From a virus (Duplodnaviria; Heunggongvirae; Uroviricota; Caudoviricetes), in the IMG/VR virus record IMGVR_UViG_2706794698_000014: a stretch of 7,271 nucleotides of DNA. One strand, 5' to 3'. Of the stretch, positions 3,936 to 7,271 are shown in pieces (positions within the stretch are counted from its first letter, which is position 1; each line of letters opens with the position of its first letter). The notes under the pieces are model-generated. The model was given only the letters and a program-made list of their open reading frames with translations, made no database searches and was not told the origin of the DNA. Made by a program: the position numbers and the translations under genes.

Positions 3936-4091
3936 TTACTTCCTGGATTCGTAGTCTACGAAGACAGCGACCTCCGTCTGGCCGGTTCGGATTCGTACCT
4001 CACAGAGGTCTTTCCTCGTTACCAGTGCCGTCACTATGACGGTTAAACAGATGACGATCAGGGCGATTAACATCGCCTTTTGCTGCTTCAT
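3936..4091 (-). CDS. hok: Hok/Gef-family type I toxin (small membrane toxin), 51 aa: MKQQKAMLIALIVICLTVIVTALVTRKDLCEVRIRTGQTEVAVFVDYESRK
   Basis: ATG at 4089-4091 with an AAGGAG Shine-Dalgarno 9 nt upstream; stop at 3936-3938. The first ~45 residues match HokD/RelF of E. coli Qin as I remember it, with a divergent C-terminus. The 70-aa ORF in the track is an in-frame upstream extension (mok-like). Confidence 0.85.
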   Translation of the reverse strand: MKQQKAMLIALIVICLTVIVTALVTRKDLCEVRIRTGQTEVAVFVDYESRK

Positions 4092-4139
4092 AGCCTGCTT
4101 CTCCTTGCCTTTCGGCATGTAAGAGGCTAACCTACATGT

Positions 4140-4215
4140 GCAAAGCATGAAATTGGCCTCAGATTAATGTTAAGCGTCTTGCCGGACGCGTAATGTTAAC
4201 TGGGGCTTTTCTCTA
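4140..4215 (+). ncRNA. sok: Hypothesised Sok-like antisense RNA opposite the hok leader and upstream (mok-like) initiation region; boundaries approximate
   Basis: Inference from hok-locus architecture. A possible plus-strand promoter (TTGCCT 4105-4110, 17-nt spacer, TAACCT 4128-4133) would give a transcript antisense to the upstream in-frame ATG at 4146-4148 and its GAGG Shine-Dalgarno. An imperfect hairpin around 4171-4194 and a T-rich run at 4207-4215 follow. No direct evidence of the RNA. Confidence 0.2.
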
Positions 4216-4267
4216 TCTGCCTTTTGGTGTTCATGCCTGAAGCAGATAGCCTCAAGCACCCGCAGTC

Positions 4268-5989: not shown

Positions 5990-6052
5990 AAATCCTCCTG
6001 AAACTACTTAACAACCCTCGAATGGCTAACATTCGGACGCCAGCTCTCCCAG

Positions 6053-6522
6053 TTAAAATTCACCCAGCGNNNNNNNNNNNNNNNNNNNNNNNNNNNNNNN
6101 NNNNNNNNNNNNNNNNNNNNNNNNNNNNNNNNNNNNNNNNNNNNNNNNNNNNNNNNNNNNNNNNNNNNNNNNNNNNNNNNNNNNNNNNNNNNNNNNNNNN
6201 NNNNNNNNNNNNNNNNNNNNNNNNNNNNNNNNNNNNNNNNNNNNNNNNNNNNNNNNNNNNNNNNNNNNNNNNNNNNNNNNNNNNNNNNNNNNNNNNNNNN
6301 NNNNNNNNNNNNNNNNNNNNNNGATAGCTGCCGCTAAGTGATTCTTCCCGGTACCAGGTTTTCCGCTGAACGCAAAATTTGTACACCCGGTCATCAGTTC
6401 ATCGGCGATGGATTTCGCCTGGCTTAACGCGTATCGCTGGCCGTCGTTCTGCACCTGGTAATTCGCAAACGAGCATTTACGGTGCAACGGCTGGATGCCT
6501 GAGCGATTCAGAATTTTTTCCA
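6053..6522 (-). CDS. DnaC-like helicase loader (AAA+ DnaC/IstB family), 3' portion. The frame continues into the masked block 6523-6772, where the true start must lie (a stop at 6773-6775 closes the frame just beyond the mask).
   Basis: Visible translation …LNRSGIQPLHRKCSFANYQVQNDGQRYALSQAKSIADELMTGCTNFAFSGKPGTGKNHLAAAI… aligns without gaps to E. coli DnaC residues ~57-119, including the Walker A motif GKPGTGKNHLAAAI. The M at 6487 in the ORF track is a TTG and is internal. Stop at 6053-6055. Confidence 0.8.
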
Positions 6523-6858
6523 NNNNNNNNNNNNNNNNNNNNNNNNNNNNNNNNNNNNNNNNNNNNNNNNNNNNNNNNNNNNNNNNNNNNNNNNNNNNNN
6601 NNNNNNNNNNNNNNNNNNNNNNNNNNNNNNNNNNNNNNNNNNNNNNNNNNNNNNNNNNNNNNNNNNNNNNNNNNNNNNNNNNNNNNNNNNNNNNNNNNNN
6701 NNNNNNNNNNNNNNNNNNNNNNNNNNNNNNNNNNNNNNNNNNNNNNNNNNNNNNNNNNNNNNNNNNNNNNNNTCAATAGCCTCCGGCTCGAATTTTTTAG
6801 ACGCTCGTTTTTGGCGAGGGGGAGATCAGTATTTAGATCTTCCTCTTCCTCTTCCTCT

Positions 6859-6902
6859 GGTAACGCTTTTTGATCCGTTTGTGTAACGCTGGCAGCGTTA
6901 CC
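6859..6902. repeat. Iteron-like repeats: GTAACGC half-sites at 6860-6866 and 6883-6889, the second forming a near-palindrome TGTAACGC-TGGCA-GCGTTACC (6882-6902)
   Basis: Seen directly in the sequence. Located within the acidic linker-coding region (EEEEED) of the replication initiator, the position where lambdoid origins lie. Confidence 0.4.
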
Positions 6903-6928
6903 TTTTCGTTTCAGTTCGCGTATTTTTG

Positions 6929-7192
6929 TTACTCGCTCGTTTGTAACCGCCCGTTTTTTTTAGAGCTTTTTCCGTTATGACGTTCAAAGTTAGGTAGAGA
7001 AAGCCCTCCGTCATTTTCGACCAGCCATCCAACCTGAATTAACGCATCAGCAAAACCAGACATAAAAGTGATGCGATCTATTGCACTTTTTGTAACGCCG
7101 CGAGCGTTACAATCTGCATTACCGTCTATCATTTGTTGATCCGCCCATGCCCAGAAGCGAATAACCTGAGGTAGCCTGAGTTTAACGGACAC
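6929..7192 (-). CDS. Phage replication initiator, N-terminal DNA-binding segment (lambda O-like by weak resemblance). The likely native start is the ATG at 7130-7132. The frame is interrupted at an A8 run and upstream sequence beyond 7166 appears to belong to an IS element.
   Basis: Open frame ending at TAA 6929-6931. The ORF-track start at 7192 is a GTG abutting its own putative Shine-Dalgarno and falls inside the IS end. The segment …KSAIDRITFMSGFADALIQVGWLVENDGG… loosely resembles the lambda O N-terminal domain (…KPMDRITDSQLSEITKLP…). A second frame continues from 6959 into the mask with no start codon (see findings). Confidence 0.4.
   Translation of the reverse strand: MSVKLRLPQVIRFWAWADQQMIDGNADCNARGVTKSAIDRITFMSGFADALIQVGWLVENDGGLSLPNFERHNGKSSKKNGRLQTSE
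7091..7111. repeat. Perfect palindrome TGTAACGC-CGCGA-GCGTTACA (8-bp arms, 5-bp spacer) sharing the same half-site as the 6859-6902 repeats
   Basis: Seen directly in the sequence. Candidate initiator or regulator binding site. Confidence 0.4.
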
Positions 7193-7271
7193 TCCTTCCT
7201 GAAATAGAATGGCATCAGAAGGAGCTAATAATGAGCAGAAAAACCCAACGTTACTCTAAAGAGTTCAAAGC
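7167..7271 (+). mobile_element. Left end of an IS3-family insertion sequence (IS600-like), continuing beyond the window
   Basis: An orfA-like start lies 64 bp in from a TGAGG… terminus, the usual IS3-family layout. A GGACAC motif at positions 21-26 from the proposed end matches the same offset in the IS3 left inverted repeat as I remember it. The exact boundary is inferred. Confidence 0.55.
7231..7271 (+). CDS. IS3-family transposase OrfA, N-terminus (MSRKTQRYSKEFKA…), truncated by the window edge
   Basis: ATG at 7231 with AAGGAG 6 nt upstream. The …YSKEFKAEA… helix-turn-helix signature is typical of IS3-family OrfA (IS600-like from memory). Confidence 0.6.
   Translation, partial: MSRKTQRYSKEFK

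Follow-up and report, generated by a model that had tools for sequence, protein, structure and literature searches.

The right-hand part of the window, by which we mean the whole 7,271-nucleotide stretch of phage DNA analyzed here, carries on its minus strand the readable parts of a DnaC-like helicase-loader gene and the remnant of a replication initiator gene, the latter cut off by the left end of an IS600 element (Table 1). As the reference for the remnant we used the intact 789-bp gene of an E. coli prophage (L002), which has a ydaT-like gene on one side and a DnaC-like ydaV gene on the other. Homology to the intact initiator gene stops at 7167, at the IS600 junction (7167/7168), and the insertion, whose orfA begins MSRKTQRYSKEFK..., took away the first ~35 initiator codons and displaced the upstream palindrome described below from the window. 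Alignment to intact genes also revealed a +2 and a -10 lesion. The gene has therefore been hit by three independent inactivating events (IS600, the +2 frameshift and the -10 frameshift), and because it is interrupted three times, the window's copy of the element is a non-functional relic. The initial annotation, which placed the repeats inside the initiator coding region, was correct as to the gene but missed that it is a pseudogene.

Protein matches labelled Shigella, together with the IS600 insertion, suggest a Shigella-like source for the window. Two runs of Ns (6070-6322 and 6523-6772) fall short of their counterparts in L002 by 65 and 203 bp; the masks may not preserve length, or they may hide deletions in ydaV and in the 3' end of ydaU. 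In a Shigella flexneri locus (L004), the 3' end of ydaU is damaged and ydaV is truncated. The same prophage remnant also holds a hokD/sok toxin-antitoxin locus (window ~3936-4261, by homology to L002 3896-4221). In L002, hokD is an annotated CDS and sok an Rfam match at 117 bits, and the window is 99.9% identical over the hokD/sok stretch.

The intact homolog of the initiator matches PHROG 2509, "replication initiation protein" (E=1e-89), and one copy is named "phage replication initiator YdaU family" in RefSeq. PHROG 678, "O-like," matches residues 77-236 only. No Pfam family matched the initiator at E<0.01; by Pfam, its N-domain is not homologous to the DNA-binding domain of lambda O, and a profile of the N-domain found no relative among solved structures. 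AF2 modelled the N-domain, with moderate confidence, as a winged helix (pLDDT 72.6; below 50 in the basic tail). Residues 170-262 of the intact homolog are homologous to the C-terminal domain of DnaT (2ru8, E=9.5e-5; 9zbt, E=3e-4), a match that includes the terminal NTVS-PDS-IPPGFRG, and many relatives contain Pfam PF17948, which we take to be the DnaT DNA-binding domain. In the window, the DnaT-like part is masked or deleted.

The intact homolog of the helicase loader matches NCBIfam PRK12377 (E=8e-154) and DnaC (E=2e-91). Depending on the lineage, the initiator is followed by a DnaC-like gene, a DnaB helicase gene or a lambda-P-like gene, and initiator plus downstream partner is the classic modular O-plus-partner layout. 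An O-like initiator paired with a DnaC-like loader, as initially proposed, is indeed what the locus contains, with an initiator in the O position followed by a DnaC-like gene.

Table 1. Features of the initiator locus and its surroundings in the window
Feature	Position	Strand	Remarks
DnaC-like helicase-loader gene (ydaV type), readable parts, partly masked	6004-6522	-	
Initiator gene remnant, pseudogene, ~codons 36-165 of 262 aa	6774-7167	-	96.8% nucleotide identity to L002:6717-7505
10-bp deletion junction (TCCCCCTAAA) between TCCCCC direct repeats, second frameshift	~6818-6823	-	Halves the C-run motif
All-purine tract AGAGGAAGAGGAAGAGGAAGA, 21 nt, encodes EEEEEE linker	6838-6858	-	Longest purine/pyrimidine run in the window
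Tract-proximal half-site, exact (GCGTTAC on gene strand)	6860-6866		Followed by CC, then the purine tract (CCAGAG junction)
Site 2 palindrome GTAACGC-TGGCA-GCGTTAC	6883-6901		In linker; also in 58/66 relatives
A8 run on gene strand (T8 on +), 8 versus 6 in intact genes, +2 frameshift	6953-6960	-	
Site 1 palindrome GTAACGC-CGCGA-GCGTTAC	7092-7110		Inverted repeat; also in 61/66 non-redundant relatives
Degenerate half-site GCATTAC (GTAATGC on gene strand), 1 mismatch	7116-7122		12 bp from left half-site of site 1
IS600 left end, orfA from 7232	7168-7271	+	Annotated IS3-like element IS600 family transposase

Conserved half-sites in the initiator gene

The initial annotation described an octamer and its reverse complement as forming palindromes inside the initiator gene, and this description is borne out. 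TGTAACGC occurs three times in the window (6882 and 7091 on the plus strand, 7104-7111 on the minus strand) versus 0.14 copies expected, a count reached in none of 200 shuffles. Its 7-mer GTAACGC occurs six times versus 0.46 expected, and five of these six copies lie inside 6860-7110 (251 bp). Site 1 is a perfect inverted repeat with 9-nt arms (7090-7098/7104-7112) and encodes C-N-A-R-G-V-T. Site 2, first reported at 6882-6902 as near-perfect, has a core that is a perfect 19-bp palindrome (arms 6883-6891/6893-6901) and encodes G-N-A-A-S-V-T. The additional half-site next to the tract is exact, and these copies lie, as claimed, within ~250 bp and inside an initiator-like minus-strand frame that encodes the acidic linker EEEEEE. 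On the gene strand the order is site 1 (7122-7092), site 2 (6901-6883), half-site (6866-6860) and tract (6858-6838). The window thus holds two palindromes and two extra half-sites in dispersed clusters, not four adjacent iterons. In phage vB_EcoS-666R9, GTAACGC occurs without mismatch at 9207 and again 12 bp further on, at 9219, in the place that corresponds to the degenerate half-site of the window.

A search with an alignment of the N-domain retrieved 71 genomic and 80 viral loci (552 viral relatives in all), and removal of near-duplicates left 66 non-redundant initiator genes, on which the site and tract counts are based. The hosts of the retrieved loci include enterobacteria, Serratia, Pantoea, Xanthomonadales, Burkholderiales, relatives of Pseudomonas, Akkermansia and other Verrucomicrobia, and Planctomycetes; the module is also found in Xanthomonas, Ralstonia and Pseudomonas, and epsilon15-like and Rac-like phages are included. 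Nearly all relatives have the site 1 palindrome at +149/+161 from the ATG and most have the site 2 palindrome at +320 to +430 (counts in Table 1). Intact enterobacterial relatives have a third palindrome, site 0, which lies 12-32 bp upstream of the ATG in the intergenic region after ydaT, directly 5' of the ribosome-binding site (GTAACGCTGCGAGCGTTAC-AAGGTGA). In non-enterobacterial lineages no perfect site was found upstream of the ATG, the sole exception being the viral contig L143, which is unassigned and has one at -34.

The sites are specific to the initiator gene. Across 391 kb in the 66 related loci, all perfect sites, defined as GTNAC-N9-GTNAC, fall between -99 and +412 of an initiator ATG, with a single exception at +674 (L065) that is still inside its initiator gene. 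In the complete 38.7-kb genome of phage vB_EcoS-666R9, all three perfect palindromes (9027, 9219 and 9426) are at the initiator gene, and 8 of the 12 copies of GTAACGC/GCGTTAC lie within 9027-9467. That the half-site might be equally dense throughout the genome, a concern voiced in the initial annotation, is not borne out in this phage or in the related loci.

The consensus across relatives, GTAACGCTnnnAGCGTTAC, has nearly invariant half-sites and a spacer that varies freely. Site 2 is read in three different frames, as xNAxxVT in 36 genes, VTxxALQ in 9 and xSRxxRD in 6, and the valine codon of site 1 is GTT in 55 of 64 cases, compared with 29% GTT for the other valine codons of the same genes. 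Because three frames are used at site 2, synonymous codons are fixed, an intergenic copy exists and the spacer is free, selection must act on the nucleic acid and not on the peptide.

Half-sites also form arrays in the relatives, with three to six half-sites at 11-12 bp between centers: 110 of ~160 non-overlapping neighbor distances are 11 or 12 bp, and another 25 are 21-23 bp, i.e., with one position skipped. The clusters at sites 1 and 2 are ~190-230 bp apart, their spacings grouping at 189, 198, 207-211, 217-221 and 228-231 bp. Helical phasing of the two sites (resultant 0.55 at periods of 10.4-11.2, and 0.41 on 17 distinct values) is at best suggestive, given that the sequences share ancestry and are bound to their codons.

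Of the 66 relatives, 48 have a purine-only tract of 14-33 nt, in most cases the longest purine/pyrimidine run of the locus. The tract consists of (AGAGA)n or, in enterobacteria, (GAGGAA)n, and in 44 of these 48 genes a half-site lies 5-6 nt before it. The GC content of the tract is 36%, compared with 54% for the gene, in all 48, and in 34 of them the tract overlaps the 40-nt segment of the gene that is lowest in GC. Of 85 arginine codons within the tract, 81 are AGA, compared with 8% elsewhere. Tract, half-site and site 2 all lie in the linker (window 6838-6901), between the coding parts for the N- and C-domains. Since the tract peptide shifts with the frame (EEEEEE, EKRREEK or REEKRRE) and its arginine codons are nearly always AGA, the "acidic linker" is the coding shadow of the purine tract, a DNA element. 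Taken across the relatives, the array of sites and the purine tract behave as one conserved DNA-level signal that spans a single initiator family across bacterial phyla.

A general role of the tract in H-DNA or triplex formation was considered and rejected: perfect mirror symmetry is a property of (AGAGA)n but not of the (GAGGAA)n in the window.

Two further features were noted around the tract. Five of the 19 GATC sites of the window lie in the 394-bp initiator remnant (6824, 6836, 6872, 7075 and 7138), the first three flanking the tract within 52 bp, and in enterobacterial relatives the tract is often flanked by GATC on either side; these sites could be subject to Dam/SeqA-type control. In addition, 9 of the 48 relatives, belonging to distant taxa, have a motif of two C5-7 runs separated by 2-6 nt, which begins 0-19 nt past the tract (e.g., L009 +453, L025 +432 and L149 +442); in L110 (+461), the tenth case, it lies in this region too. 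A G run often comes next, as in CCCCCCTTACCCCCCAAGGGG, which encodes PPLPP. The motif is nearly unique in each 6-kb locus and is half-deleted in the window. The ydaU gene of K-12 Rac contains a C-run motif as well (L003 4631-4658), and the motif may be a further origin element.

The half-sites of one element change in concert. A subgroup that has His instead of Asn shows GTCAC/GTGAC throughout, in both arms of site 1, both arms of site 2 and the half-site next to the tract; site 2 of L026 is GTTAC/GTAAC, and the half-sites of L065 are GTCACAC. Epsilon15, whose N-domain is 34% identical, has GTCCGC/GCGGAC in the same layout before the same kind of tract. All six GTCAC-type members have Lys or Gln at residue 113, where nearly all GTAAC-type members have Val; the six include L065 and L033, the protein of the latter otherwise resembling a GTAAC-type clade. 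This co-variation between residue 113 and base 3 of the half-site, which comprises few independent lineages (~2-4 switches), makes the basic helix that follows the wing a candidate reading element for the half-site.

In epsilon15 itself (L156), positions 35510-35576 read GTCCGC-N5-GTCCGC-N7-GCGGAC-N5-GCGGAC followed by CAGAGAAGAGAAGAGAAGAGAAGA, the longest purine run of that genome; the epsilon15 RefSeq record has no origin annotated.

Candidate origin function and its alternatives

We consider it probable that the repeats are binding sites for the initiator and, together with the low-GC purine tract, form a phage origin of replication within the initiator gene. From the conservation, positions, co-variation and gene context described above, we infer a sequence of initiator binding, tract melting and helicase loading. 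First, the winged-helix N-domain with its basic tail helix (~103-117) would read GTAACGC half-sites, presented as palindromes and as arrays with 11- to 12-bp spacing at site 1 in the N-domain coding part, at site 2 in the linker and, in enterobacteria, at site 0. The site 2 array stops 5-6 nt before the purine tract, predicted to be the easiest-melting stretch of the gene, and opening would occur there. The DnaT-like C-domain would then bind the exposed single strand or recruit the helicase via a partner protein, presumably the DnaC-like YdaV here and DnaB or a lambda-P-like protein elsewhere. The candidate prophage origin put forward in the initial annotation is thus supported by our computational tests as an origin-type cis element, but what is left of it in this window is a relic.

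Some observations speak against this origin model. The clusters of sites are ~200 bp apart, and the tract is GA-rich and not strongly AT-rich. Members that lack a DnaT-like C-terminal domain have retained the tract as well, and therefore a link between C-domain and tract is not general. In the literature on YdaU, on DnaT in a prophage or origin context and on epsilon15, we found no description of these repeats, nor did we find a paper on origin activity or binding for any member of the family.

The palindromes may instead be operators through which the initiator or another phage regulator throttles transcription of the gene, with no role in initiation. Initiators commonly autoregulate, and the location of the enterobacterial site 0, between ydaT and the initiator gene and directly 5' of the ribosome-binding site, is what would be expected of an operator. 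However, apart from L143, the upstream site was not found in non-enterobacterial lineages, two conserved sites lie within the coding region (~+150 and ~+360), and the site 2 array adjoins a conserved low-GC purine tract for which an operator would have no need. We therefore regard a purely regulatory function of the whole set as unlikely. Autoregulation and origin function can coexist and are not mutually exclusive; site 0 could even be purely autoregulatory, which is compatible with the origin reading.

Less credible still is a hairpin acting in RNA or single-stranded DNA, whether in processing, in pausing translation or as a signal for primosome assembly (ssi). A stem of 7-8 bp with a loop of 3-5 nt is possible, the concerted A-to-C/T-to-G change keeps the pairing, and the purine-rich sense strand would yield a purine-rich RNA that could hold a stable R-loop. 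A selected hairpin nevertheless fits poorly with arms whose sequence is kept across phyla without compensated drift, with a loop that is unconstrained and with the joint switching of all sites of one element. Few of the mismatches at pair 7 are of the wobble type (3 sense G-U versus 35 "other"), many half-sites are direct repeats at 11-12 bp and lack a pairing partner, and Rfam found no family within L002 6717-7540 at E<=1. That the repeats merely reflect chance, or a peptide motif, N-A-x-x-V-T, used twice, can be dismissed almost entirely: both window palindromes are in frame xNAxxVT and the first falls in the folded N-domain, in which G50, V59 and T60 hardly vary, but the peptide reading is refuted by three unrelated peptides in three frames at site 2 and by fixed synonymous positions, an intergenic copy (site 0) exists, and only 0.14-0.46 copies per window are expected by chance.

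Returning to the origin reading, its best version on present sequence evidence would be a lambda-like origin, combining an array bound by the initiator with an unwinding element, whose initiator family is uncharacterized, whose geometry is unlike that of lambda and in which a GA tract takes the place of the AT block. This would provide a precise origin model for a widespread phage replication module that lacks a Pfam family. The element is also a clear case of dual coding, a DNA signal being kept in three frames and a "disordered acidic linker" being a DNA element. The pairing of GTAAC with Val113 and of GTCAC with Lys/Gln113 may amount to a natural specificity switch. For the genome studied here these points carry little weight, as its module is a decayed prophage remnant.

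Relation to known initiators and origins

The initial annotation likened the arrangement to the origin of lambda, and this holds for the location of the repeats inside the initiator gene but not for the geometry, with two to three clusters ~200 bp apart and a GA tract instead of four adjacent iterons and an AT-rich block. In lambda too, the origin lies inside the initiator gene, around the linker between N- and C-domain (established knowledge; see also PMC5509034), with repeats of dyad symmetry and a neighboring low-GC stretch that is purine on one strand. A gene for a helicase-recruiting partner lies immediately downstream in both, and N-domain and repeats swap as a module. In contrast, the N-domain of the window type has no sequence relationship to that of lambda O (no Pfam match), only the C-part matches the "O-like" PHROG, and its C-domain is DnaT-like. 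One of its clusters lies inside the part that encodes the N-domain, its half-site is a GTAACGC(T) of 7-8 nt with an array spacing of 11-12 bp, and its tract is (AGAGA)n/(GAGGAA)n, not an AT block.

A further comparison is with YdaU of the K-12 Rac prophage, which belongs to the same prophage type and occupies the same gene position (cII-like ydaT, initiator, DnaC-like ydaV). Only the C-terminal 124 aa, 81% identical, are common to the two proteins, whereas the N-domain of K-12 YdaU is unrelated and annotated as DUF1376-containing. Instead of GTAACGC half-sites, K-12 ydaU has, in the corresponding part of the gene, AGATGTTCAAACA-like repeats, four to five copies with one inverted (L003 4472-4578). 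Since K-12 YdaU has both another N-domain and other repeats, N-domain and repeats swap together, and the window type can be viewed as an alternative allele of the Rac replication module with its own sites.

The AGATGTTCAAACA-like repeats are located in the linker region of K-12 ydaU, just before the segment shared with the window type. Rac has been reported to have an active origin, oriJ (PMC3945230). We found no paper that gives oriJ coordinates, the primary oriJ papers being outside our reach; it is plausible that the repeats at L003 4472-4578 mark the candidate position of oriJ.

Unwinding at the DnaA-trio offers another comparison for the array and tract of the window. As with the DnaA boxes and DnaA-trio of oriC, an array of double-strand sites ends at a tract of short-period repeats, and by analogy the initiator could use another of its domains to form a filament on the single strand. 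The proteins are unrelated, a winged helix plus a DnaT-like domain versus an initiator with AAA+, and the tract period is 5-6 nt compared with 3. A parallel between DnaT and DnaA has been drawn before (PMC13377028).

E. coli DnaT (primosomal protein I) is not known to have a domain for sequence-specific DNA binding, and its placement depends on PriA/PriB. In the initiator, by contrast, the modelled winged-helix domain would place the protein at specific sites. The C-terminal domain of DnaT, which aligns to residues 170-262 of the initiator, is reported to form filaments on single-stranded DNA (PMC13377028). This opens the way to a more speculative reading, which we hold only tentatively, in which the initiator is an "origin-targeted DnaT" that works like a miniature DnaA. 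Its winged-helix N-domain, with a basic reading helix, would oligomerize on the array of half-sites with its 12-bp period, and its DnaT-like part would form a filament on one strand of the tract, with its 5- to 6-nt period, possibly helped by a stable R-loop of purine RNA from the initiator transcript; the opened tract would then pass to DnaB via DnaC, P or DnaB itself, bypassing PriA/PriB. If this reading is true, the acidic or EKRRE linker would be a by-product, and the binding site would be written in the coding sequence of the very domain that reads it. The homology in any case connects phage initiators with DnaT, and how DnaT recruits the helicase is an open question (PMC13377028).

A domesticated O-like protein with a DnaT C-terminal motif, DopC, has been described (Brezellec et al. 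2017, PMC5509034). It shares with the window type an N-domain in the O position, a DnaT-like C-terminus and an adjoining P-like partner (PMC5509034); its N-domain is reported as HTH_36, however, and its locus has no iterons (PMC5509034). The one locus inspected from the Cellvibrionales, the same order as dopC (L031), was considered as a dopCE locus and turned out to be an ordinary prophage with a DnaB gene, so that we make no claim on dopC.

Only two plasmid matches to the initiator were obtained, and the one inspected, the "plasmid" NC_015459.1 of Pusillimonas sp. T7-7 (L157), a 41-kb circle, proved to be an entire phage genome. Its annotation lists no replication genes besides the initiator and an AAA+ ATPase, which is at most a weak hint of autonomous replication, and at 38043-38816 it contains a five-half-site array together with a tract of 29 nt, longer than any other such run in the record.
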